Part shown: positions 1-60,895 of the stretch, one piece after another
Numbering within the stretch: the stretch's first letter is position 1
Layout: the number at the start of each line of letters is the position of its first letter
Source: Dehalococcoidia bacterium
GTDB lineage: Bacteria > Chloroflexota > Dehalococcoidia > Lucifugimonadales > UBA1123
NCBI GenBank assembly: GCA_965116405.1
Contig: OZ220685.1
Location: forward strand, 1,875,492-1,939,491
Direction of reading: 5' to 3'
DNA length: 64,000 bases
The notes under the pieces: generated by a model
What the model saw: the letters and a program-made list of their open reading frames with translations, nothing else
Databases searched by the model: none
Told to the model about the DNA's origin: nothing
Position numbers and translations under genes: made by a program

Positions 1-3000
1 ACCCCTGTAGCGATCCACCAGCGATAGGAACTCCGACAGGCACCTCCCGCCAGAATCGTCCCGATTCGACCGCACGCCTCACCACACTACTTCGTACCGC
101 GACTCTCGACAGCCTGACTATGTCGTCGACCCGGCCCGGGATGCCTTCGGCATAGGCCTGTGCGCGGGCCGTATCCTCGATTCCGTCGCCCGTTGCGAGG
201 TCAATCGTCTGAAGGACCGCGTGGACAGCACGACCTATCTGAGTTCCAGCCCGCCCCCGCCTCCAGGGTTCGTCATTCTCCTGCTCGTCCTTGGTCTCTT
301 CGTTGGCGACCTCCGCCAGCCTGGTCGCTGCGACTGTGGTTGGACGCCCCTGTCGTCCGATCAGGTCGTCACGGGCCTCGATCCATCGGATTCTGGCATC
401 TCCTGAGTGATCGACAACGTCGATGTCATCTGTAGACCGATCACTGCTGCCTTGCGAGATTGCCACAGGCATTTGCTCTGCCGGGTCGGGCAGACGACGC
501 CACATGTCATCCTGCCCCTCGAAGTGGTCTGCGATGTAGGAAGCATCCGACTCGCTTCCCAACCGCCGGTACATGCTGAGAACGAGGTGGTCCATGGCGC
601 GCGTGGCCGCGACGTACAGCAGCCTGACATGCTCGTCGTCGAGCATCGACTTCTCATCCGACTCTAGCGCTTCATATCCCGATGTCTGGAACCTCTGGAC
701 GCCGCTTCCGACCTTCACCTCCACCGAGTTGCGTCCACTATGTCCGTCCTGACGATCAAACAGCACCTGACCCGTCCGGTTCGATCTCCGAGCGTTCAGG
801 CCCGTCAGTATCACAACCGGGAACTCCAAACCCTTGGAGCCGTGCACCGTCATGATGCGGACGGCGTCTTCGTCGGTCTCGGGGACTGGGGTCTCGGTCA
901 CGCGCGCTCCCTCGCTTCGCTGCCGGTCGATCCACTCGAGGAAACTTCGGAGCGAGCCGCCTCCGGCCTCTGTGAACGCTCTCGCCTGTGCCACGATGAA
1001 CCGGTACCTGCGCCACTGCTCTCGCCTGCGGGGGTGGTCGACCGCGGCGGCCATCAGCGGTCGCTCACGAATGAACCCGTCGATTAGGGCAGCAACAGAA
1101 GTCCACATCCTGCGCTCGTGGTAGTCGTTCAGCGTTTCCAGCCCTTCGGCCACTGGGCCTCCTATGGCATCAGAGCGACTTAGGTAGTCGAATCGTCCCC
1201 CTGATTCGTAGTACCTGAGTAGGTCCACGTCCGTGCAGGCGAAGGCCGGGGAGCGGAGCGCGGCTACTATCGCGACCTCGTCGCCCGGGTCGTCAATCGC
1301 GCGGAGGCAGTTGAGGAGGTCGCGCACCTCCTGAGTGTCGAAGATCAGGGAGCTGCCCTCCAGCCTGTACGGCACGTCAGCTTCGTCGAGCGCGAGCTCG
1401 AGGTCGCGCAGTCCCGTGCGCGTCGGCATCAGTATGCAGATGTCGGAGTACCTGGCTGATCTGTACTCGGGTACGCCGTCACTCTCGCCCGATCTGATCT
1501 GCCAGCCAGCACCGGCAATCTGTCCTAGGGCAGACGCAATGCCCTGGCATTCGAGTTCCCTGACTTCCCCGATCGGCGCATCGAAAGCGTCACCGAGCCG
1601 CCATACAGAATGGAGACCATCTTCGCTGGTCGAAGTCTGCCACATGTGCCGCAGGCTCACGTACTCGGCCTGTGACTCGCTGGCCTCCATCCACTGACCA
1701 AACAGGTGGTTCACCCAGTCGATGATCGGTCGGTGGGACCTGAAGTTCTGGTCGAGGTTCACAGGCGTCTGGTTCATACGGCTCTTGAGTGTGTTGAGCT
1801 GCCGTACGTCCGCGCGCCGGAAACGATAGATTGACTGCTTGGGATCACCGACGACGAACAGCCTACCGGCGGCCGGCGGCACATTTCTCCAGTCCGTCGG
1901 ACGTGACTCGGGCGGCGTGCCGTCCGGGACATCCTCGGCGATGAACATGGCGATCTGCATCTGGATCGGGTCGGTGTCCTGTGCCTCGTCGAGGAGCAGG
2001 TGTGTGTATCGCTGCCTGAAGTGGTCGCGGACGCTGATGTTGTCTCGAAGCAGGTTCCGTGCCCATACGAGCAGGTCGTGGTACCCAGCGCGACCCTCCA
2101 GCTTGCGCTCCTGTTCATACCCGATTACGAAGTCTCGCAGTGCGGCCAGGATCGGGGGCAGTGACGTGTCCCTGGCCTGGTCCAACTCCATCGCGACCTC
2201 GTCGTGAATCTCCTGCAGGTACTCCTTGAGCTGCTTGCAAGCGTTCACTCCAGATGACGGATCGGTATTCCAGTCGCCCTGCCGTCCCCGCGTCTGGCGA
2301 AGAGGCATGAGCCTAGACAGCATTCCAAGGGCAACAGGCGACCCCGCCTCCATCTCGCTAAGCCGTCGCATGGACGACATCTTGGATTGGACGTGTTGGA
2401 AGAGCTGATCGTCCTCTTGTAACTTCGAGAATCCGCACAGTCGCTCAAGCTCAGGGCCAGCCTCAACAAGCCTCTGCACGGACTGGAACCTGGCCATACC
2501 AGGTATCCCCTCACTCTCAGGGCTTACAGGGGTAGATAGGCCGACAACTCGTTCGTCCTGAGCTTGTCGAAGGACATTCCCCATCCCCTGGATTCCCGCA
2601 TTCGCGGGAATGACGGTTTGGGAATTCCTACCTCTCTCAGCCCCCTCTCCTTGGGGGTGAGGGTGAACCGCAGCATCGTCGAACTCGACACCCTCAAGAA
2701 GGTCGTAGTTGTTGTGGAACTGGAGCGCGATCTGCCGGAGGTGGGCTGGTCGCAGACCCAGCGAAAGAGCCACAGGCAAGGTCGGTACGTTGTCAGCATC
2801 ATCGAGTGTCCAGTCGAGCCACTCGTTCCACTTCTCATCGAAGTCGAGGTCGCTTGCGACCTGGTCCATAGTCTCGAACGAAGGCGGAAGCCCCGCCTCC
2901 AGGGGACGCTCGCGAAGTATCGCGCCGGCGAAGCTGTGCAGCGTCGTGAAAGTCGCGCTGTCGATGTCCTCGACCCCGGCAGCGTAGCGTTCTCTCCACA

Positions 3001-3265
3001 CCGGGTTGGCCTCGACGTCGGATGCGGCCCTCTCCAGTTCCTCCCTGATGCGCTCCTGGAGCTCGGAGGCCGCGGAGTTGGTGAAGGTGATCGCAGCGAC
3101 CTTGTCCACGGTCGTTACACCAGTCCCGATCAGGTTGACGACCCTGCTCACCATGCTGGTCGTCTTGCCGGTACCCGCTCCGGCCTCGACGAACATCGTC
3201 TCGCCGAGCGAGAGCCGGATCTTGTCGCGCGCGACCTGGTCTATTGGTGTAAACGACGTCGTCAT
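1..3265 (-). CDS. addA: UvrD/PcrA-family helicase-nuclease, AddA-like; C-terminus runs off the window (at least 1088 codons here)
   Basis: Hand translation from ATG at 3265, just downstream of the addB-like stop: MTTSFTPIDQVARDKIRLSLGETMFVEAGAGTGKT (Walker A). Later motifs are LLLDEAQDTDP (II), GDPKQSIYRFRRAD (III), TVHGSKGLEFPVV (V), LLYVAATRA (VI), and IGRAVHAVLQ near base 240 (RecB-type nuclease region). This frame has no stop down to base 1, which explains its absence from the supplied ORF track. Confidence 0.85.
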   Translation of the reverse strand, partial: MTTSFTPIDQVARDKIRLSLGETMFVEAGAGTGKTTSMVSRVVNLIGTGVTTVDKVAAITFTNSAASELQERIREELERAASDVEANPVWRERYAAGVEDIDSATFTTLHSFAGAILRERPLEAGLPPSFETMDQVASDLDFDEKWNEWLDWTLDDADNVPTLPVALSLGLRPAHLRQIALQFHNNYDLLEGVEFDDAAVHPHPQGEGAERGRNSQTVIPANAGIQGMGNVLRQAQDERVVGLSTPVSPESEGIPGMARFQSVQRLVEAGPELERLCGFSKLQEDDQLFQHVQSKMSSMRRLSEMEAGSPVALGMLSRLMPLRQTRGRQGDWNTDPSSGVNACKQLKEYLQEIHDEVAMELDQARDTSLPPILAALRDFVIGYEQERKLEGRAGYHDLLVWARNLLRDNISVRDHFRQRYTHLLLDEAQDTDPIQMQIAMFIAEDVPDGTPPESRPTDWRNVPPAAGRLFVVGDPKQSIYRFRRADVRQLNTLKSRMNQTPVNLDQNFRSHRPIIDWVNHLFGQWMEASESQAEYVSLRHMWQTSTSEDGLHSVWRLGDAFDAPIGEVRELECQGIASALGQIAGAGWQIRSGESDGVPEYRSARYSDICILMPTRTGLRDLELALDEADVPYRLEGSSLIFDTQEVRDLLNCLRAIDDPGDEVAIVAALRSPAFACTDVDLLRYYESGGRFDYLSRSDAIGGPVAEGLETLNDYHERRMWTSVAALIDGFIRERPLMAAAVDHPRRREQWRRYRFIVAQARAFTEAGGGSLRSFLEWIDRQRSEGARVTETPVPETDEDAVRIMTVHGSKGLEFPVVILTGLNARRSNRTGQVLFDRQDGHSGRNSVEVKVGSGVQRFQTSGYEALESDEKSMLDDEHVRLLYVAATRAMDHLVLSMYRRLGSESDASYIADHFEGQDDMWRRLPDPAEQMPVAISQGSSDRSTDDIDVVDHSGDARIRWIEARDDLIGRQGRPTTVAATRLAEVANEETKDEQENDEPWRRGRAGTQIGRAVHAVLQTIDLATGDGIEDTARAQAYAEGIPGRVDDIVRLSRVAVRSSVVRRAVESGRFWREVPVGVPIAGGSLQG
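2530..2672 (-). repeat. composite hairpin repeat (modules C + A + B) embedded in frame in addA
   Basis: Module B is at 2548-2575, module A at 2590-2616 (GGATTCCCGCATTCGCGGGAATGACGG) and module C at 2631-2669. It translates as HPHPQGEGAERGRNSQTVIPANAGIQGMGNVLRQAQDERVVGLSTPV. Confidence 0.8.
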
Positions 3266-3269
3266 GTAA

Positions 3270-6200
3270 CTACTCGCCAACCAGGTCGCGGTAGCCGGAC
3301 AGCATCGGATTGTCGCGCTTCTTCTCCCAAATGCCGTCCCGCCGGGAGGGGCAGAGCGAGTCGAACTCGCAGAACCCGCAGTTCTCGAACCCGAAGTAAG
3401 CGTTTCTCTCTCCGGGATTGGCGGGAAACACGCCGCTCCTGATGCCAGAGACGATGCCGGAGACCACTTCACCGAGTCTTCCACGAACCTCGTCGGAGTT
3501 CCCGTCGACAGGTTCCTTCGGAGCGAGCGCGAATGCGCCCCGCGTCGTCACAAACCAATAGGCGGAACTCACACTCTCGACGTTGTCCAGGCCACCCTGG
3601 GCCGCGAGCGCATACACGCCAAGCTGGAGCCGTCTGCCCCTGTCCGTGGGGTCGTTCTCTAATCCGTTGTACGGGCGTGGGCTGCCTGTCTTGTAGTCGA
3701 CGACGAGCGCGGCGCGGCCGTCTGAGGAGATGTCGACGCGGTCGATCACGCCCCTGAAGCGCACTTGGTCGCCGCTGTCGAGACTCCACACTGCCTCTTG
3801 CCATGGACTGCCGCGCAGCCCGAAGCCGACCTCGAACGCGCTCGGGACCACGCCGAACCTCTCCCTGTGAGCGTCGTCGCGCTCCAGGAACGTGTCCAGG
3901 TCGGCCAGGATTTGCGCTCTTTCAAGCTCCCACATCACCGGCCTGCCCGTAACGCCGTCGGACTCGGCCTTGGCGAATTGCTCGCGGGCAACACTCATGA
4001 GCACGGCCCTGTGGCTGGTACTCCACGCCTCGTCCGGCTGGGGCATCGTTCCAGACCCGGCCACACGCCTCATGAACTCATCGAGGATGTTGTGGATCAG
4101 ACTGCCGCGTTCGAGGGCCGATATCGAGAACACGTCCTCTGGCGTCTCAACTGAGCCGATCCTCAGCACGTTGCCCAGGAAGTAGCTGAACGGGCACGCG
4201 GCCCAGCGTTCGAGCCGCGTCGGAGACAGCGCCCTGTTCAGGGTGTAGCTGGTATACCCGGCCTCTCTAGCGACGGACGAACCGTTGCCATCCCATTCAG
4301 TGAAGTTCCGGCTGTTGCGGGCTCGTCCCAGGTCGAGCGCCCTGCCCAGGGTCGCGCCCGTGGCGAACGGGTGTCGCGATACGTACTGGCCGGCACTCTT
4401 CCAGCGCACGAGGTGGCGCAGGTCATAGTCGAGAACGTCAGCGGCGTTTTTAGCTTCTCCGTCGAGGAGCGCGGACTCCGCCGAGGGAACGACGGTCAGC
4501 CAGTCCCTGCCTCCCATGCGCTGGAGCTCCGAGGCCGTCACCCGCGTGCCGTTCAACTCCGCCGCCTGTTCGAGCAGCCATCTTGACGCGTGCTGCTCTC
4601 GTCCGGCGGACGGGTCGGCCAGCGACACCGACAGGGTCCTGTCAGGCGCGCTGTCGAGCGCGTACAGGTATTCGAGCCGCTCCCTCGCCCTGGCGTCCTG
4701 CTGCATCTCGAATCCCGCTGCGGAGCCCCCTGCGCGGAGCCTCGCCGACTCTGGCACCAGCGGGTCGTCTGCCTGTGCGGGCGGCACCGCCCCCTCGATC
4801 ATCCCGACGAGGTACACGGCGTCGAACTGCATTCCTGCCGCATCCCGGAACCGGGCGACAAACACGCCACGGCCCGTCTCGCCCAATCGCCCGGCCGTAG
4901 CCTGTAATGCCTCGTACAGGTCCTCGCGGAATACCGGGAACGTCGGCTCCGGCGCGACCGCTCCCGCAGCGGTGAGCTCCGACAGGATGTCTTGTATCCT
5001 CTCCAGCGTATCCAACTCGTGCTCTGGAGTGCCCGCTCCCCTGGACACGTAGTCGTCAACGAGCTTTCGAGCCCACTCGGAAAAATCGGTCCATGAAGAT
5101 CCTTCGCCCGGCGGCTGAATGTCGTCGTGCAGGCGCTCGATGAAAGCGAGCAGCCCCCGCGCAGACTCAGCCTGTCCACGGATTCCTCTTAGCCTGCCCT
5201 CAGACATCTCCTCGGCCACTGCAGGATCGGAGATCGACTCCTCCAACCTCGCGGCGTACTTCTGCAGCCTGTCTCGCCACTGTCCGATACCCCGTACGAT
5301 CCCCGACTCCTTCGACAGCCTGTCCCACCTGCTCGGATTCAGACGTATCTCCCTGGAAGGCGACCTGACCGGGCATCCGGTCAGCCAAGACGTGACGAGG
5401 CCACGCTGGAGGTCGCTGTCGGCCAGTCCCATGAGACCTGTCAACGTCCTGCCCACTGCGGTCTCCGCCAACGTGGTGCGGTCTGGACCGGCGATGGGTA
5501 TGCCCGCCAGTTCCATCTCCTCGGCGATGAGCTTGCCGTAGTCTGGCTTCCGGTACAGCACCGCGATCCTGTTGAAAGGCGTCCCTTCCCGCGCCCTATT
5601 GGCGATCTGCCGGATCACCCACCTGATCTCCTGGTGTGGGTCGGACGCGATCAGCAGATGGGTATCGGCTTCTTCCGACGTCTGAGGGATGGTCTGAGGC
5701 TCGCCAAGAACTGGCGACAGTCTGTTCGCCAGCGTCTGCGTGGGACCGTCGGTAACTGAGTCGCCCGTAAGCCCCATCATCACGACGCAGCGGTCGCGCC
5801 TTCCCAACGCTTCTATGAGCGCACGCTGGGCGGGTGTGATGTCGCTCGGCATGTAGAACACGATTGCACCGAGGTCTCCAAATCCGGCGGTGGGCTGCTC
5901 GTCGACCGACTCGGCAGCGGCCTTCGCCAGGTCCTCATCGTCGTAGAAGTCTGCGACGTCACGCCTGAACTGCCGGTACAGTCTCACAGTCTCGGCCTGC
6001 AGCTCGCTGGTGGAGGCAAGAGCGTCGAGCGCGGCGACGGATACGCTTCTCAGTTCGCGAAACGACTGCTTGAGGCTACGAAGCGTTGACGAGTGTTCGC
6101 GCAGGTCGCCAAGCGGCCCAACCGCACCGCTGGCCACAGACCTGACTGCGGCGTTTTCGATCACGCGAGTAAGCGGAGCCCGGCCCTCGCTCGCCATACG

Positions 6201-6419
6201 CGGCGCGCCAAGGAACTCGGCGAGCCGCGAAAACACCATGAACCTGACGTTCACAAACCCGACGCGAGCGAAGTCGTGCCTCAGCGATAGGTTGGCGTAG
6301 TTGGACGGCCCCACGACCGTTACCGGCGCCAGCGGATCGTCGAGCTTCAGGCCGTTGACCACATCGTGCAGTGATTTAGCCGAGAGTTTGCCAGCGATGA
6401 GCGATCGGGAAAGTTGCAT
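3270..6419 (-). CDS. addB: AddB-like PD-(D/E)XK nuclease subunit of a helicase-nuclease complex
   Basis: 1049-aa ORF immediately upstream of the helicase gene. The C-terminal nuclease-like region has the Cys pattern ACPFSYF ... FENCGFCEFDSLCP, typical of the AddB Fe-S domain. The N-terminal P-loop is degenerate (VTVVGPSNYAN). Confidence 0.8.
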   Translation of the reverse strand: MQLSRSLIAGKLSAKSLHDVVNGLKLDDPLAPVTVVGPSNYANLSLRHDFARVGFVNVRFMVFSRLAEFLGAPRMASEGRAPLTRVIENAAVRSVASGAVGPLGDLREHSSTLRSLKQSFRELRSVSVAALDALASTSELQAETVRLYRQFRRDVADFYDDEDLAKAAAESVDEQPTAGFGDLGAIVFYMPSDITPAQRALIEALGRRDRCVVMMGLTGDSVTDGPTQTLANRLSPVLGEPQTIPQTSEEADTHLLIASDPHQEIRWVIRQIANRAREGTPFNRIAVLYRKPDYGKLIAEEMELAGIPIAGPDRTTLAETAVGRTLTGLMGLADSDLQRGLVTSWLTGCPVRSPSREIRLNPSRWDRLSKESGIVRGIGQWRDRLQKYAARLEESISDPAVAEEMSEGRLRGIRGQAESARGLLAFIERLHDDIQPPGEGSSWTDFSEWARKLVDDYVSRGAGTPEHELDTLERIQDILSELTAAGAVAPEPTFPVFREDLYEALQATAGRLGETGRGVFVARFRDAAGMQFDAVYLVGMIEGAVPPAQADDPLVPESARLRAGGSAAGFEMQQDARARERLEYLYALDSAPDRTLSVSLADPSAGREQHASRWLLEQAAELNGTRVTASELQRMGGRDWLTVVPSAESALLDGEAKNAADVLDYDLRHLVRWKSAGQYVSRHPFATGATLGRALDLGRARNSRNFTEWDGNGSSVAREAGYTSYTLNRALSPTRLERWAACPFSYFLGNVLRIGSVETPEDVFSISALERGSLIHNILDEFMRRVAGSGTMPQPDEAWSTSHRAVLMSVAREQFAKAESDGVTGRPVMWELERAQILADLDTFLERDDAHRERFGVVPSAFEVGFGLRGSPWQEAVWSLDSGDQVRFRGVIDRVDISSDGRAALVVDYKTGSPRPYNGLENDPTDRGRRLQLGVYALAAQGGLDNVESVSSAYWFVTTRGAFALAPKEPVDGNSDEVRGRLGEVVSGIVSGIRSGVFPANPGERNAYFGFENCGFCEFDSLCPSRRDGIWEKKRDNPMLSGYRDLVGE

Positions 6420-6440
6420 CAGTCGGTAGGATGCGAGGGT

Positions 6441-6471
6441 CTCACTCCTCGCTCCTCTCCACTCACTCCTC
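6441..6471 (-). repeat. purine-rich GAGTGAG-type intergenic repeat
   Basis: The reverse complement GAGGAGTGAGTGGAGAGGAGCGAGGAGTGAG shares the 16-mer AGTGAGTGGAGAGGAG with 53220-53235. Confidence 0.7.
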
Positions 6472-6486: not shown

Positions 6487-7542
6487 TCACACCGCCCTCG
6501 TGACGGCCATGGACGCCACCTTGGGCAGCTCGCTCAGAATCACCGAACAGCGGTAACCCGTCGCCTCGGGAGAGCCGGCCCTCACCACCAGGATGTCGTC
6601 AGGCTCGGGAACGAAGTTGGCGAATACCTGGTAGTCCTGGGGGCCAACGTCGCCCTCCAGCACACGGACGATCTTCAGGTCGGCAATCGACCGGCCAATT
6701 CTCGGGTGAAGGTAATCGCGGACGTCTTGCTTCGTCCATGTCCCCCAGAAGTCGGCGGCTCCACCAATCGTCACCACGAGCTCGCCCTGCCTTACGGGCG
6801 TTGACTCGTCTCCGACCGAGTCCGACGACGCCAGCGACGATCCAAGCACCGAGGCAACGTCCGCGACCGTGTCCAGCACCACCTCCTGCGAGTATGCTGC
6901 CGAGCGTACCTGTCTCGGCTCCCACGACGCGAACACCGTGACCGCGCTCTGGTCAGGGCTGAACCCGCGCTCCACGTGCAGAGGCAGCCAGTCGGAGTCT
7001 GACTCGTTCTCGGCGATGCAGTACGTGTACTTGCCAGGGTGTCCGATTACCGTGCGGTCGAACAGGCCGGGTATGGACGCGCAGGCGTTCATCAGGATGA
7101 GGCGAATCGCGCGCCCAATCGTCGCGTTGGCGCGGTTGCCCGGCCCGAACAGGTTTGCGCCGGAGTTCATGCCAAGCTCATCCACGACGGGCCCATTGAC
7201 GATCACCAGCACTGCCGCGCCGCCCTGGCTGGATGAGGGTGCGATGAGGTTGAACTCAGGGTCCAGCATCGCCTCAGTGGCGGCGAGCACGACGGGGAAG
7301 TACTCAGGCAGGCAACCGGCCATGACCGCGTTCGCGGCTGTCTTGGCCACGGTGACCTCGCGCCTGCGCTCCGGTATCGAGCCCAGGACTTCGTCCGCGG
7401 GACGCCCTGCGACGTCCATGAACTCCTCCACCCGCTGGAGCGTCGGAGGCACGACGGGCAGTCCGTCAGTCCAACCCATCTCGTAGCAGCGCTCGATGGC
7501 CTCGATCGCATCGTTCCACTCGGCCGTTACCAGGTCCTGCAT
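6487..7542 (-). CDS. conserved hypothetical protein
   Basis: 351-aa ORF with no competing frame. The N-terminus reads ...CYEMGWTDGLPVVPPTLQRVEEF... I recognise it only as an uncharacterised conserved family. Confidence 0.65.
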   Translation of the reverse strand: MQDLVTAEWNDAIEAIERCYEMGWTDGLPVVPPTLQRVEEFMDVAGRPADEVLGSIPERRREVTVAKTAANAVMAGCLPEYFPVVLAATEAMLDPEFNLIAPSSSQGGAAVLVIVNGPVVDELGMNSGANLFGPGNRANATIGRAIRLILMNACASIPGLFDRTVIGHPGKYTYCIAENESDSDWLPLHVERGFSPDQSAVTVFASWEPRQVRSAAYSQEVVLDTVADVASVLGSSLASSDSVGDESTPVRQGELVVTIGGAADFWGTWTKQDVRDYLHPRIGRSIADLKIVRVLEGDVGPQDYQVFANFVPEPDDILVVRAGSPEATGYRCSVILSELPKVASMAVTRAV

Positions 7543-7589
7543 GTGTTTCCCCTCTTGGTGACAGTGGGTTTCTCGCCACCCACATCCTA

Positions 7590-7730
7590 CCCTTTCCCCA
7601 TTGAGGGGCGCGAGGGGCAGGCAGATCGGCGAGCCTGTCCCGGATAAGCAGGGACCTGCATTTGGAGCGCGGGCATCTTGCCCGCATCCGTTCGTCCTTC
7701 GACAAGATCAGGGCGAACGAAGCTTTCGGG
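7590..7730. repeat. composite hairpin repeat cluster (C-like, GTCCC/GGGAC, GCGGGCA/TGCCCGC, module B variant)
   Basis: Intergenic between the 6487..7542 gene and the antiporter gene. It includes TTCGTCCTTCGACAAGATCAGGGCGAACGAA at 7691-7722. Confidence 0.7.
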
Positions 7731-7737
7731 CTACTTA

Positions 7738-24900: not shown

Positions 24901-24926
24901 CGTCATTCCCGCGAAAGCGGGAATCC
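24901..24926. repeat. hairpin repeat module A (CGTCATTCCCGCGAAAGCGGGAATCC)
   Basis: 7-bp stem TTCCCGC/GCGGGAA, intergenic between the sulfatase and sppA genes. Related copies are at 2590-2616 and 46369-46395. Confidence 0.8.
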
Positions 24927-24973
24927 ATAGGCCGGTATATTGGTGAGTCTAAATAGTCAAGAGTCCCTGGACT

Positions 24974-28843: not shown

Positions 28844-28875
28844 TCTCACTCCTCACTTTTCTTCACTCACTCCTC
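28844..28875 (-). repeat. purine-rich GAGTGAG-type intergenic repeat
   Basis: The reverse complement is GAGGAGTGAGTGAAGAAAAGTGAGGAGTGAGAG, between folD and the GNAT gene. Confidence 0.65.
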
Positions 28876-39584: not shown

Positions 39585-41462
39585 TCATTCGATGACGAAT
39601 CTTGCCGGTGCCGGGATCGTCCAGGGCCAGCCGCTCACCGGCGGCATAATGTATGCGTACAGCTTGTCGTCAGCGTCGTCTGCCACCCACATGGTGGTCC
39701 CATCGGACCAGATGCCGGTGGCGTTGTTGTTGCCAGCAGCATCGGGTGTGGTGAAGTCCCTGTACCTGTCGTGTCCCGTATCTGAGATCCTGTACGCGTA
39801 GATCGTGGCGTGACTACCGTCCGCCACCCACATGGTTGTCCCGTTGGACCAGATGCCGCGTGGATCGTCGTCGTGGGCTGCAGCCAGCGTGTCGAAGTCC
39901 CTGTCGCGGTCTCGGCTCTTATCAGACATCTTGTAGGCATACAGCCTGTCGTCTTCCCAGTCCGCCACCCACATGGTTGTCCCGTCCGACCAGATGCCTC
40001 GGGGATCGTCGTTGTGGGCTTCGTCCAGCGTGTCAAAGTCCTTGTCAGGATCGCGGCTCCTGTCCGCCATCCTGTAGGCGAAGAGCTTGTCGTCTTCCCA
40101 GTCCGCCACCCACATGGTGGTACCGTCGGACCAGATGCCGCGTGGTGAGTCGTTACCGGCCTCGCCCAGCGTGTCGAAGTCCTTGTCAGGATAGCGGCTT
40201 TTGTCCGACATCCTGTAGGCATACAGCCTGCTGTCGTTCCAGTCTGCCACCCACATAGTGGTCCCGTTGGACCAGATGCCTCGGGGATCGTTGTTGCCTG
40301 CGGCGGCCAGCGTTTCAAAGTCTATGCAGGGGTTATAGGCCAAATAGCCCACCAGTGGTCTACACACGCCGACCGTGTAGCTCAGATTGCTGTTCGCAGC
40401 CGCTATCTCGATCGTGTTCCAGCCATCCACCAGGGCGACCTGGTGGCCTGCCAAGCCGGTGTTTGCGTCCGTGCCGGGATAGGCTACGCTGGCGCTCTCA
40501 TCGGTTCCAGTCGCGGAGACTGTCACGTGGTGTACGCCGACGGCAACTTTCGCCGTGTAATTCATTGTGCCGCTCGCAAAGGCAGGGCTCAGCGGAACAT
40601 CGCTGCCGCCAGGGCCGGTAAGGCTCAGTGCCTCCAGCTCCATTGGCATGTTGTAAGCGTATAGCCTGTCGTCACGACCGTCGGTCACCCACATGGTTGT
40701 CCCGTCCGACCAGATGCCTCGGGGATCGTCGTTTCCGGCGGCATCCGGCGTGTCGAAGTCCCTTGCAGGGTCGCGGCTCCTGTCCGACATCCTGTAGGCG
40801 TACAACTTGCGGTCACTCCAGTCCGCCACCCACATGGTTGTCCCGTCCGACCAGATACTGCGGGGGTCGTTGTTGCCCGCAGCATCGAGCGTGTCGAAGT
40901 CCTTTGCAGGGTCGCGGCTCTTGTCCGACATCCTGTAGGCGTACAACCTACTGTCATTCCAGTACGCCACCCACATGGTGGTGCTGTCCGACCAAATGCC
41001 CTGGGGGTTTTCGTTGACGGGGCCAGGCAGCGTGTCGAAGTCCTTTGCGTGATCGCGGCTCTTGTCCGACATCTTGTAGGCGTACAGCATTCCGTCTTCC
41101 CAGTCCGCCACCCACGTGGTTGTCCCGTCGGACCAGATACCATGGGGTGCGTCATTGCCGGCGGCATCGAGCGTATTGAAGTCCTTGTTCTGGTCACGGC
41201 TTCTGTCAGACATCCTGTATGCGTAGAGCTTGCGGTCCCGCCAGTCCGTCACCCACATGGTTGTCCCGTCGGACCAGATGCCGCGGGGATCGTCGTTTCC
41301 GGCGGCGTCCAGCGTCTCGAAGTCTCTGGCGACATTGTGCGCGAAACCGCTCTGTTGCGCCTGTATTGGGGACGAGAGCAGGACTGAAGCCGCTATCGCC
41401 AGTGACAGCGCGGCCAGCAGTGCGAGCAGAGTGGGGCCTCGTTGTCTACTGGAGCAAGTCAT
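39585..41462 (-). CDS. secreted repeat protein: 5 x 47-aa repeats, cadherin-like beta-sandwich, 5 x 47-aa repeats
   Basis: Signal-peptide-like N-terminus (LLALLAALSLAIAASVLL). The repeat consensus is DFDTLDAAGNDDPRGIWSDGTTMWVADWxDxKLYAYRMSDKSRDPxK. The central segment is LSLTGPGGSDVPLSPAFASGTMNYTAKV... Confidence 0.85.
   Translation of the reverse strand: MTCSSRQRGPTLLALLAALSLAIAASVLLSSPIQAQQSGFAHNVARDFETLDAAGNDDPRGIWSDGTTMWVTDWRDRKLYAYRMSDRSRDQNKDFNTLDAAGNDAPHGIWSDGTTTWVADWEDGMLYAYKMSDKSRDHAKDFDTLPGPVNENPQGIWSDSTTMWVAYWNDSRLYAYRMSDKSRDPAKDFDTLDAAGNNDPRSIWSDGTTMWVADWSDRKLYAYRMSDRSRDPARDFDTPDAAGNDDPRGIWSDGTTMWVTDGRDDRLYAYNMPMELEALSLTGPGGSDVPLSPAFASGTMNYTAKVAVGVHHVTVSATGTDESASVAYPGTDANTGLAGHQVALVDGWNTIEIAAANSNLSYTVGVCRPLVGYLAYNPCIDFETLAAAGNNDPRGIWSNGTTMWVADWNDSRLYAYRMSDKSRYPDKDFDTLGEAGNDSPRGIWSDGTTMWVADWEDDKLFAYRMADRSRDPDKDFDTLDEAHNDDPRGIWSDGTTMWVADWEDDRLYAYKMSDKSRDRDRDFDTLAAAHDDDPRGIWSNGTTMWVADGSHATIYAYRISDTGHDRYRDFTTPDAAGNNNATGIWSDGTTMWVADDADDKLYAYIMPPVSGWPWTIPAPARFVIE
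39639..40322 (-). repeat. intragenic 141-bp repeat block (repeats 6-10)
   Basis: Long near-identical nucleotide stretches (for example CCACCCACATGGTTGTCCCGTCCGACCAGATGCC) recur with 141-bp spacing. Confidence 0.85.
40644..41327 (-). repeat. intragenic 141-bp repeat block (repeats 1-5)
   Basis: Same unit as 39639-40322. The alternative-frame ORFs in the track are by-products of this repetition. Confidence 0.85.
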
Positions 41463-46301: not shown

Positions 46302-46368
46302 GGCGTACCCTCCGAAGAGTGAGAGCCTCCCGTCCCTTGGTGGGCTAATAGGGGTAGGTATTCACAAC

Positions 46369-46452
46369 CGTCATTCCCGCGAGACCGGGAATCCAGAGGC
46401 TGGGAGCGTCCTTCGACAGGCTCTAGCCTTCTCCCACCAGGGGAGAAGGGAC
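46369..46452. repeat. composite hairpin repeat (modules A + B + C)
   Basis: CGTCATTCCCGCGAGACCGGGAATCC, GTCCTTCGACAGGCTC, and CCTTCTCCC-ACCA-GGGGAGAAGG. Intergenic between the corA start and the ArsC-like gene end. Confidence 0.8.
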
Positions 46453-50383: not shown

Positions 50384-51199
50384 CTACTCGCCTTCCTTGG
50401 ACTCGTCCTCGTTAGTGGACTCCTCTTCGGATGGCTCCGCTGATGCCTCGGCCTCGACGGGAGCGGCCTCCTCCGCCTCAGGCTCTGTGCTGGCCTCGGC
50501 TTGGACTGGAGCGGTCTCCTCGGCCTCTTCTGCGGTAGGCTCCGTGCTGGCCTCGGCTTGGACTGGAGCGGGCTCCTCGGCCTCTTCTGCGGTAGGCTCC
50601 GTGCTGGCCTCGGCTTGGACTGGAGCGGGCTCCTCGGCCTCTTCTGCGGCAGGCTCTGTGCTGGCCTCAGCCTGGACTGGAGCGGGCTCCTCGGCCTCTT
50701 CTGCGGCAGGCTCTGTGCTGGCCTCAGCCTGGACTGGAGCCGCATCTTCAGCTTCTGCGCCTTCCTGAGCGGCGGATTCGGCTGCTTCCGCTTCAGCCAG
50801 TCTGCGTGCCTCTTCGCGCTCTCTGGCCTCCTGCTCGGCGGCGGCACGTCGCTCGGCTTCCAGCCTTGCCGCACGCTCTCGCTCGGCCTGCTTCTCCATG
50901 GCGGCGATGTCGGACGGATCAAGCCGGAAAACGAGGTGTCTCAGCACGTCCTGGGACGAGTTCAGAGTATTGTCCAACTCAACGGCTGCCTGCGCATCCA
51001 TCTTGCAGCGGGCGATGAAGTAGTTGCCCTCGATGAACCGCTGGATCGGGTAGGCGAGCCTCCTGATACCCCAGTTCTCCTGGTCTGAGACGGCTCCGCC
51101 CCCGTCGGAGATGAGGCTCCTTATTCGATCGACAGTCTCAGACGCCTCGGCTTCAGTAGCCTCGGGGCTGAGAATCATTACAAGCTCGTAGTCGCGCAT
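50384..51199 (-). CDS. rpsF: 30S ribosomal protein S6 with ~170-aa acidic repeat-containing C-terminal extension
   Basis: From the ATG at 51199: MRDYELVMILSPEATEAEA...WGIRRLAYPI. After about residue 100 comes a charged helix and then tandem APVQAEASTEPAAEEAEEP units. Confidence 0.88.
   Translation of the reverse strand: MRDYELVMILSPEATEAEASETVDRIRSLISDGGGAVSDQENWGIRRLAYPIQRFIEGNYFIARCKMDAQAAVELDNTLNSSQDVLRHLVFRLDPSDIAAMEKQAERERAARLEAERRAAAEQEAREREEARRLAEAEAAESAAQEGAEAEDAAPVQAEASTEPAAEEAEEPAPVQAEASTEPAAEEAEEPAPVQAEASTEPTAEEAEEPAPVQAEASTEPTAEEAEETAPVQAEASTEPEAEEAAPVEAEASAEPSEEESTNEDESKEGE
50450..50760 (-). repeat. in-frame 57-bp tandem repeat (about 5 copies) inside the rpsF 3' extension
   Basis: Unit starts at 50498, 50555, 50612, 50669 and 50726 are nearly identical, with degenerate flanking copies. 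Confidence 0.9.
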
Positions 51200-53210: not shown

Positions 53211-53216
53211 CCCTGA

Positions 53217-53247
53217 GAAGTGAGTGGAGAGGAGTTAGGAGCGAGAG
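53217..53247 (+). repeat. purine-rich GAGTGAG-type intergenic repeat
   Basis: GAAGTGAGTGGAGAGGAGTTAGGAGCGAGAG, directly after the FAD oxidoreductase stop. Confidence 0.7.
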
Positions 53248-60805: not shown

Positions 60806-60895
60806 CAGTCGTTCGTCCTGAGCTTGTCGAAGGACGGGTTCATGGTTCGACGATCTCGTGAACTAGACGAACGGCTCACCGCTCACGATGGTGAA
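60806..60895. repeat. composite hairpin repeat (module B plus partner arm)
   Basis: TCGTTCGTCCTGAGCTTGTCGAAGGAC (60809-60835) is identical to 2549-2575. It is followed by GGGTTCATGGTTCGACGATCTCGTGAACTAGACGAACGG. Intergenic between the two ACAD genes. Confidence 0.8.

Follow-up and report, generated by a model that had tools for sequence, protein, structure and literature searches.

A 64-kb stretch of the genome of a Dehalococcoidia bacterium (Chloroflexota; contig OZ220685.1, positions 1,875,492 to 1,939,491; hereafter the window) contains a gene for a UvrD/AddA-type superfamily 1 (SF1) helicase-nuclease whose coding sequence is interrupted, in frame, by a nested mosaic of short repeat modules. 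The best explanation, to which we assign a probability of roughly 80%, is that selfish repeat DNA was inserted into a working gene and has been tolerated rather than selected. The modules are designated A to E (Table 1), and module A is assigned below to a known class of repetitive extragenic palindromic (REP) sequences, the CGTC-1 type.

The helicase frame is open from above position 3400 to position 1, and the other two frames contain 33-34 stops. Across the mosaic it reads EGVEFDDAAVHPHPQGEGAERGRNSQTVIPANAGIQGMGNVLRQAQDERVVGLSTPVSPESEGIPGMARF, as had already been read in the first-pass annotation of this stretch; residues 201-257 are HPHPQGEGAERGRNSQTVIPANAGIQGMGNVLRQAQDERVVGLSTPVSPESEGIPGM, and the junctions are spanned by the peptides AAVHPHPQGEGAER and SPESEGIPGMAR. 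The Walker A motif (GAGTGKT) lies upstream and the DEAQD motif downstream of the insert with the frame unchanged. When all six frames of the 159-nt segment were translated, a single one was free of stops, namely sense frame 0, which is the helicase frame.

The alignment of orthologues that had been proposed as a check in the first-pass annotation indicates a lineage-specific insertion. Among 30 orthologues (56-86% identity), 23 have an empty site (..FDDAQM-PAFDSAQKL..), a group that takes in every distant orthologue and also P0004, P0007, and P0008, which belong to the closest. Five others (P0002, P0005, P0006, P0009, and P0011) contain only a remnant of module C, 13-16 aa in length ('HPHPNPLPEGEG' or 'HPHPNPLPEGEGV..'), and P0003 alone has a module C remnant in which RIKSGAG, encoded by module D, is nested. 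A further 41-45 aa, corresponding to an E-A-B-E piece, are present only in the window protein and are nested in the C remnant. At the DNA level, the alignment of six orthologous loci has clean junctions, with L002 representing the empty site. A perfect hairpin with a 9-bp stem and a 3-nt loop (CCCTCTCCC TGA GGGAGAGGG), preceded by CACCCTCACCCC, occupies the site in L001 and L006, and the E-A-B-E unit of the window lies between CACCCTCACCCC..GGAGAGGGG and GAGTGAGGGG. The newer piece (123-135 nt) is unique to the window genome, and the older 'HPHP..GEG' remnant is common to some relatives. Because there are orthologues without the segment, the polarity is that of an insertion, and the segment is, as judged from these alignments, a lineage-specific insertion produced by two nested events. 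Its length is 57 aa when measured against the empty-site orthologues, rather than the approximately 48 residues given in the first-pass annotation. Module C has also entered other sites of the operon that the helicase gene forms with its AddB-like partner. In the L001 genome it stands in frame at three sites, always in the same orientation but each time in another reading frame. Two of them are in the helicase gene, namely the shared site (HPHPNPLPEGEG) and a further one (SPSPQPSPVKGEG), and the third is in the AddB-like partner gene. Relatives thereby add three in-frame module C inserts, all within this two-gene operon, to the one genic site of the window.

Table 1. Features of the insert, its host operon, and related repeats (window coordinates unless a locus is named)
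Feature	Position	Strand	Remarks
UvrD/AddA-type SF1 helicase-nuclease gene (host)	2..3265	minus	ATG at 3265; N-terminal 1088 codons inside the window
AddB/AdnA-like partner gene, upstream of the helicase gene	3270..6419	minus	1049 aa; PD-(D/E)XK nuclease
Whole lineage-specific insert relative to empty-site orthologues	2495..2665	minus	Residues H201-M257, 57 aa, 171 nt; from the protein alignment and the DNA alignment with L002
Module C, 5' part	2654..2667	minus	TTCACCCTCACCCC, read as HPHP; common to P0002, P0003, P0005, P0006, P0009, and P0011
C 3'-arm-like segment	2642..2653	minus	CAAGGAGAGGGG (QGEG); imperfect direct repeat with 2507-2519; compare 'HPHP(E/K)GEG' in L004/L005
Module E, left copy	2622..2643	minus	GGGCTGAGAGAGGTAGGAATTC; terminal inverted repeat of the newer unit
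Module A, CGTC-1-type REP (assigned)	2588..2615	minus	CGTC / ATTCCCGC / GAAT / GCGGGAAT / CCAG; translated VIPANAGIQ
A-B spacer	2576..2587	minus	12 nt, GGGATGGGGAAT
Module B	2550..2575	minus	GTCCTTCGACAAGCTCAGGACGAACG; translated VLRQAQDER
Module E, right copy	2520..2541	plus	Inverted relative to 2622-2643
3' C-arm-like flank	2507..2519	minus	TGAGAGTGAGGGG (PESEG)
Module B copy, intergenic	60809..60835	plus	Opposite orientation; 27/27 identical to the 27-mer 2549-2575
Module B copy, intergenic	7694..7720	plus	2 mismatches to 2549-2575; in a spacer whose module content differs in each relative
Module A solo copy, intergenic	24901..24928	plus	30-mer 2585-2614 matches 24902-24931 with 3 mismatches
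E-A-B composite, intergenic	46342..46425	plus	B truncated; E at 46342-46363; closest relative of the genic unit in the window
Syntenic spacers upstream of the 351-aa gene	L001:1358-1634, L002:1404-1714, L003:1384-1640, L004:1519-1712, L005:1332-1665		
Module F	6440-6471	minus	
Module F	28844-28875	minus	
Module F	53215-53246	plus	

The newer unit (E> A> B> <E) measures 124 nt from the left to the right copy of E. The left copy matches the reverse complement of the right one at 15 of 22 positions, so that the unit has imperfect terminal inverted repeats, and E likewise borders the mosaic in L002. An imperfect direct repeat of 9-10 nt (GGAGAGGGG versus GAGTGAGGGG, ~8/10) flanks the new piece, but these two sequences could equally be a pair of copies of the C-hairpin arm; the 3' flank may thus be either a duplicated target or a C-arm copy. 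Module A is predicted to form a strong hairpin with an 8-bp stem and a 4-nt loop (-9 kcal/mol, z -4.0). Module B folds no better than shuffled sequences (z about 0) and is a weak hairpin only. An A-B spacer of 9-12 nt is also present in the intergenic composites. The first-pass annotation, which described three hairpin modules, was right about the composite nature of the segment but not about its structure, which is that of an E-A-B-E unit nested in a C remnant.

Sequences related to these modules occur at eight sites in the window, only one of which is genic. The identity of the 27-mer of module B with an intergenic sequence, reported in the first-pass annotation, is exact, and no such recurrence is expected by chance (0 in 100 shuffles). 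Module A has three copies in the 64 kb, all singles and two of them intergenic; besides the solo copy in Table 1, it is found at 46366-46404 with 87% identity. The genic unit and the composite at 46342-46425 share 84% identity over E to B, and the A-to-B part matches 46368-46425 at 48 of 56 positions (86%, 1 gap), somewhat better than the approximately 80% first estimated. The A-to-B core is 93% identical (53/57) to an intergenic copy in L002, and a four-way alignment and module scan revealed that the E-A-spacer-B composite is shared with intergenic DNA of L002 and L004 at 84-93% identity. The remaining copies in the window lie between long open reading frames (ORFs) or merely touch a stop codon. 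The earlier statement that the modules elsewhere occur only between genes therefore holds for A and B, with this qualification, but the outer HPHP-type hairpin (module C) has no other good copy within the 64-kb window.

The spacer upstream of a 351-aa gene (window 7543-7737) is a hotspot of repeat turnover: the set of modules found there (A, B, C, D, and E) changes from each relative to the next, and conservation is limited to the final ~60 nt before this gene. Module D (CCGGATCAAGTCCGG, peptide RIKSGAG) also occurs nested in module B, in mosaics between genes of L002 and L004. The insertion of one small module into another is therefore the rule in this lineage.

In the definition of Di Nocera, De Gregorio and Rocco (2013, PMC3733652), a CGTC REP has a CGTC tag that stays unpaired, a stem of 8-9 bp whose first residues are AT, a loop of 4-5 nt, and a tail resembling CCA. 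The CGTC-1 family, in which the stem measures 8 bp and the loop 4 nt, has been equated with dRS3 of Neisseria and with RPE-6, one of the Rickettsia palindromic elements (RPEs), of R. conorii (PMC3733652). In module A, the sense strand reads CCGTC followed by ATTCCCGC (2615-2588), the 8-bp stem (ATTCCCGC/GCGGGAAT) has A and T as its first residues, the loop is GAAT (GAAA at 24901, and GAAG or GAAA in relatives), and the tail in GCGGGAAT-CCAG fits CCA. On this agreement in every published structural feature, module A is classified as a CGTC-1-type REP. CGTC REPs are multicopy, dispersed, and mainly intergenic, with head-to-head dimers predominating, and REPs with a CGTC or GTAG tag have been reported wholly inside ORFs, notably in uvrABCD, UvrD/REP helicase, recBCD, and polymerase genes of several phyla, with in-frame copies among them (PMC3733652). 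Module A, with two intergenic copies among the three of the window, may be similarly dispersed and mostly intergenic and is often part of mosaics; its head-to-head dimers were found in other Dehalococcoidia loci (L117, L120, and L123). The genic copy differs in belonging to a larger E-A-B-E unit instead of standing singly or as a head-to-head dimer. It also differs in its host: CGTC repeats were listed in 2013 for Proteobacteria, Chlorobi, Bacteroidetes, Spirochaetes, and Thermotogae, whereas Chloroflexi appeared only for GTAG repeats (PMC3733652).

In a scan covering one genome per species, the exact 28-mer of module A (27 specified bases and one N in the loop) was found in at least 120 stretches (L007-L126). 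The matches listed include Alpha-, Beta-, Gamma-, and Deltaproteobacteria, Planctomycetes, Nitrospirae, Gemmatimonadetes, and candidate phyla, among the last the candidate phyla radiation (CPR) members Peribacteria and Wolfebacteria, as well as at least 16 metagenome-assembled genomes (MAGs) of Chloroflexota, of which at least 13 belong to Dehalococcoidia. Such conservation of a 28-nt hairpin across phyla is striking for a non-coding repeat, and it is consistent with the 2013 survey while being much broader. Module A also forms a head-to-tail array with a 107-nt period and at least three copies in a Dehalococcoidia MAG (L071:7715-7956), an arrangement unlike the single or head-to-head ones typical of CGTC REPs.

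When 143 module A matches in other genomes were screened for spanning ORFs, 24 'deep' candidates were obtained, most of which were set aside as spurious high-GC ORFs (ten candidate ORFs were inspected, and Pfam was run on the two most plausible). Two matches among the 143 were confirmed as deep genic copies, one belonging to a REP dimer within a UvrA gene and the other standing alone within a gene for an Eco57I-type methylase. In the former (L021, Proteobacteria MAG JAEWBU010000032.1), a 1941-aa UvrA-like ORF spans the match at 7193-7220, and the REP pair, one member of which is the exact 28-mer, lies in frame between UvrA_inter and UvrA_DNA-bind (..ESRHPREGGDP...LDSRLRGNDD..). This case independently reproduces the published REP bias towards uvrA. 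No candidates came from a word-indexed protein search in which the 56-aa peptide of the insert served as the query. An exhaustive HMMER search with 60 aa of the insert gave eight matches at E<=1e-3, of which two (P0121 and P0126) are short ORFs reading the same mosaic in the same frame and the other six are tandem arrays or repeat proteins with no relation to it; the search is unusable as a census of genic copies. The metagenome scan for the A-spacer-B composite yielded a single match. In an apparently real protein of 561 aa (P0128), a 15-aa unit, SEPSHSAQDDRVVGM, is repeated about ten times in tandem. The unit is similar to AQDERVVG, the peptide read from module B, so that tandem amplification of a repeat-derived peptide may have taken place within this gene.

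The protein that carries the insert has the features of an intact helicase-nuclease. The full-length product (P0001, 1187 aa), which is 100% identical to the part encoded in the window, matches Pfam UvrD-helicase (4e-49) and UvrD_C, and its C-terminus contains a PD-(D/E)XK nuclease domain (PF12705, precomputed Pfam). Its closest relative in the PDB is Bacillus subtilis AddA (3u44_A), with a profile match of 1.8e-71 that includes the C-terminal nuclease stretch; the PDB matches also include the AddAB structures 3u4q, 4ceh, 4cei, and 4cej. The partner protein matches PDDEXK_1 (4e-38) and, weakly, UvrD_C. The order of the two genes is kept in all relatives (L001-L005), and the six orthologous loci fetched have a common gene order. 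Because the host combines an N-terminal UvrD-like SF1 helicase with a C-terminal PD-(D/E)XK nuclease in one gene, as is characteristic of AddA/AdnB-type proteins, and a nuclease-bearing PD-(D/E)XK partner adjoins it, the pair is identified as encoding an AddAB/AdnAB-type helicase-nuclease. The host retains every invariant column of the 30-orthologue alignment, and its dN/dS values against six orthologues are 0.105-0.131; the gene is under purifying selection.

Relative to the helicase motifs, the insert follows the motif Ia/Ib region and 'TLHSF' and precedes motif II, in agreement with the first-pass annotation, and small indels nearby in other orthologues indicate that the position is indel-tolerant. 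We take this position to belong to the accessory 1B-type helical domain, as expected from the topology that UvrD-like SF1A helicases generally have; the insert stretch is not covered when AddA is aligned to the profile. Structural modelling, also proposed at the outset, placed residues 198-257 as a low-confidence coil (predicted local distance difference test, pLDDT, 23-28) between confident flanking helices (pLDDT 79-90) in an AlphaFold2 model. Of the suggestion that the region is variable and surface-exposed, the first part is thus borne out by the orthologue indels, and the second is an inference to which the low-confidence coil lends itself. The extra peptide is probably a disordered surface loop, and for this reason the helicase-nuclease is predicted to work still.

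These data suggest the following course of events. The ancestral helicase would have had no insert here (..FDDAQM-PAFDSAQ..). A 48-nt hairpin repeat, module C (read HPHPNPLPEGEGV..), would then have entered a helical-domain loop between motifs Ib and II. Later, in the lineage of this genome only, a 124-nt mosaic composed of E, the CGTC-1 REP 'A', the spacer, B, and an inverted E would have entered the hairpin remnant, adding 41-45 aa. The gene would have survived because the added length was a multiple of three and the mosaic lay in the only stop-free frame of six. As to the mode of arrival, we tentatively favour a MITE-like (miniature inverted-repeat transposable element) or hairpin-targeted insertion, at slightly less than even odds. 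A MITE-like event is suggested by the inverted E ends and the flanking direct repeat, both of which are imperfect, and hairpins as targets are suggested by the recurrence of nesting in hairpins.

Several points weigh against this account. The terminal inverted repeats (15/22) and the direct repeat (~8/10) do not constitute an established transposition signature. The 2013 survey found no transposase associated with CGTC REPs (PMC3733652), and neither a cognate transposase nor a RAYT (REP-associated tyrosine transposase) was identified here, the source genome not having been searched for either. The C remnant is patchily spread on the helicase tree (a rough neighbour-joining tree), which implies repeated gains at one site or precise losses. 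The AlphaFold2 model is weak overall (pLDDT 62; predicted template modelling score, pTM, 0.40), and the many gaps of the alignment at the insert partly account for its low pLDDT. We infer the translation of the full-length protein as well as the neutrality, loop location, and mode of arrival of the insert.

A serious alternative for the arrival, and one that we regard as quite possible, is that the new piece is a copy made through homologous recombination, gene conversion, or template switching, with an intergenic C[E-A-B-E]C mosaic as the donor and the genic C remnant as the short homology. It must be taken seriously because both flanks of the new piece (GGAGAGGGG/GAGTGAGGGG) are C-arm-like sequences, which also border E in intergenic mosaics: E modules abut C-hairpin arms in those of relatives, e.g. 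CCCTCTCCCTGAGGGGGCTTACAGGGGTAGGTATTC in L005. Copying would also agree with the lack of a known transposase for CGTC REPs (PMC3733652). However, the flanking homology is very short (~10-14 nt), and no donor with the full arrangement was found in the 64-kb window or in the relatives' loci.

We consider it doubtful, although worth stating, that CGTC-type REP mosaics are actively inserted from hairpin to hairpin in a sequence-specific manner and, in addition, have a real bias to double-strand-break and excision-repair genes. Repair genes with such repeats comprise those for the AddA-like, AddB-like, and UvrA proteins found here and UvrABCD and RecBCD in the literature (PMC3733652). A bias of this kind could be understood if single-stranded hairpins become accessible as targets in repair intermediates, or if repeats spread more readily once repair proteins are altered. 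If the proposal were true, the four allelic states at one codon position (empty, C, C+D, and C+E-A-B-E) would be a natural series revealing the target rules and the enzyme.

That the insert has been exapted, its loop or its DNA/RNA hairpin altering helicase-nuclease activity or expression under selection (e.g. through recombination or mutation rates), seems improbable. Di Nocera and colleagues speculated on altered recombination or mutation rates for REP-tagged repair genes (PMC3733652). REPs do recur in repair genes (PMC3733652), including both complex subunits in L001 and UvrA in L021, and the 176-nt segment folds as DNA better than shuffled sequences (z -2.8). Yet the insert is known from a single genome, its absence does not prevent function in close relatives, no structure is predicted for the peptide, and the presence of different cargo at the same site in relatives points to turnover rather than conservation.

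An assembly artefact, in which a repeat copy was misthreaded at a pre-existing hairpin, is very improbable. Repeats are a classic cause of misassembly, and the protein cluster consists of one member from one contig, but the host contig is 3.57 Mb long, the flanks are collinear with the orthologous gene, and two switches within ~135 nt would be needed. Moreover, the insert keeps the reading frame exactly and occupies the one frame without stops, and comparable nesting, both here and at other sites, recurs in relatives that were assembled independently. The reverse view, that the segment is ancestral coding sequence from which the intergenic copies were derived, has nothing beyond the shared sequence in its favour and is refuted by its absence from all distant and several close orthologues and by the dispersal of the exact A 28-mer across many phyla.

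Insertion of tolerated repeat DNA, as favoured here, has its nearest precedent in the RPEs, and the analogy drawn in the first-pass annotation is apt. As far as the account of Ogata et al. 2000 given in PMC10969869 goes, RPEs are likewise palindromic repeats of ~100-150 bp that lie in frame in functional genes, encode an apparently tolerated peptide, and occur as one family both within and between genes. The present insert, too, preserves the frame of a functional gene, and orthologues lack it. The suggestion that the lineage is a different one stands, but that of a different repeat family does not, module A fitting CGTC-1, which has been equated with RPE-6 (PMC3733652). This link is made through the published assignment of RPE-6. 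The host here is a free-living-type member of the Chloroflexota, whereas that of RPEs is an obligate intracellular alphaproteobacterium, and the structure is a nested mosaic, in contrast to one conserved element encoding one conserved peptide.

The bacterial interspersed mosaic elements (BIMEs) of E. coli consist of REP hairpins and short conserved motifs in varying order and orientation and are extragenic. The modules described here are similarly combined in varying arrangements at intergenic sites, but their sequences are unrelated to BIMEs, and the insert is genic. We know of no BIME nested inside a coding hairpin remnant. For heterocystous cyanobacteria, Elhai and colleagues reportedly described in 2008 hairpin repeats of very small size that occur in genes and also enter one another; these bacteria belong to another phylum, and their repeats are said to have other sequences. 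The hypotheses of an intein, an intron, or programmed removal were set aside, as no feature supports them.

MITEs and REPINs (REP doublets forming hairpins) resemble the insert in being small, non-autonomous, and multicopy and in forming in-frame fusions (PMC10969869; Bertels and Rainey 2011, PMC3116915), and the imperfect E ends of the insert may correspond to their terminal inverted repeats. The putative flanking duplication of the insert is imperfect. Module A has the tag CGTC, whereas that of REPINs and RAYT-associated REPs is GTAG, and mobilization by a RAYT was set aside on this ground. Rfam gave nothing at gathering thresholds and only chance-level matches in 2400-2800, and literature searches on Dehalococcoidia REPs and on the peptide VIPAKAGIQ found nothing. 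The in-frame repeat phenomenon and the repeat family are already known; the lineage and the mosaic are new.

In-frame REP/RPE-type insertions and CGTC-1 REPs are thereby extended to the Chloroflexota (Dehalococcoidia-type MAGs). The clean comparative series of an empty site, a hairpin, and a hairpin with two different cargoes records how selfish repeat DNA made a protein loop grow in steps, and the data provide independent support for the unexplained published occurrence of such repeats in DNA-repair genes. For annotation, VIPA(K/N)AGIQ, LRQAQDER, and HPHPNPLPEGEG in proteins of this lineage should be regarded as repeat-derived.

The 351-aa gene (6487-7542, minus strand) lies directly upstream of the AddB-like/AddA-like pair and has no Pfam match. 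Its position is conserved in L001-L005, the five relatives whose loci reach far enough upstream, and it may be a third component of the operon. A further repeat of the window, module F, is a 32-nt purine-rich sequence (GAGGAGTGAGTGGAGAGGAGCGAGGAGTGAGA) with no hairpin fold. All three copies (Table 1) have their purine-rich strand in the sense orientation and lie directly after or across the stop codon of a gene, the genes concerned being the 351-aa gene, FolD, and a DAO-family oxidoreductase gene; the copies at 6440-6471 and 28844-28875 are ~20-40 nt upstream of the next gene start. Module F contains TGA in several frames as well as GGAG-rich stretches and might be an intercistronic stop/Shine-Dalgarno cassette.

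Two tandem repeats were also identified in the window. Positions 39819-41324 contain two blocks of a 141-nt (47-aa) repeat with 80-81% identity, located in a 625-aa ORF (39585-41462, minus strand) that has a cadherin-like beta-sandwich match and probably encodes a repetitive surface protein. At 50464-50740, a 57-nt repeat is present in 4.9 copies with 95% identity and is overlapped by long ORFs on both strands.

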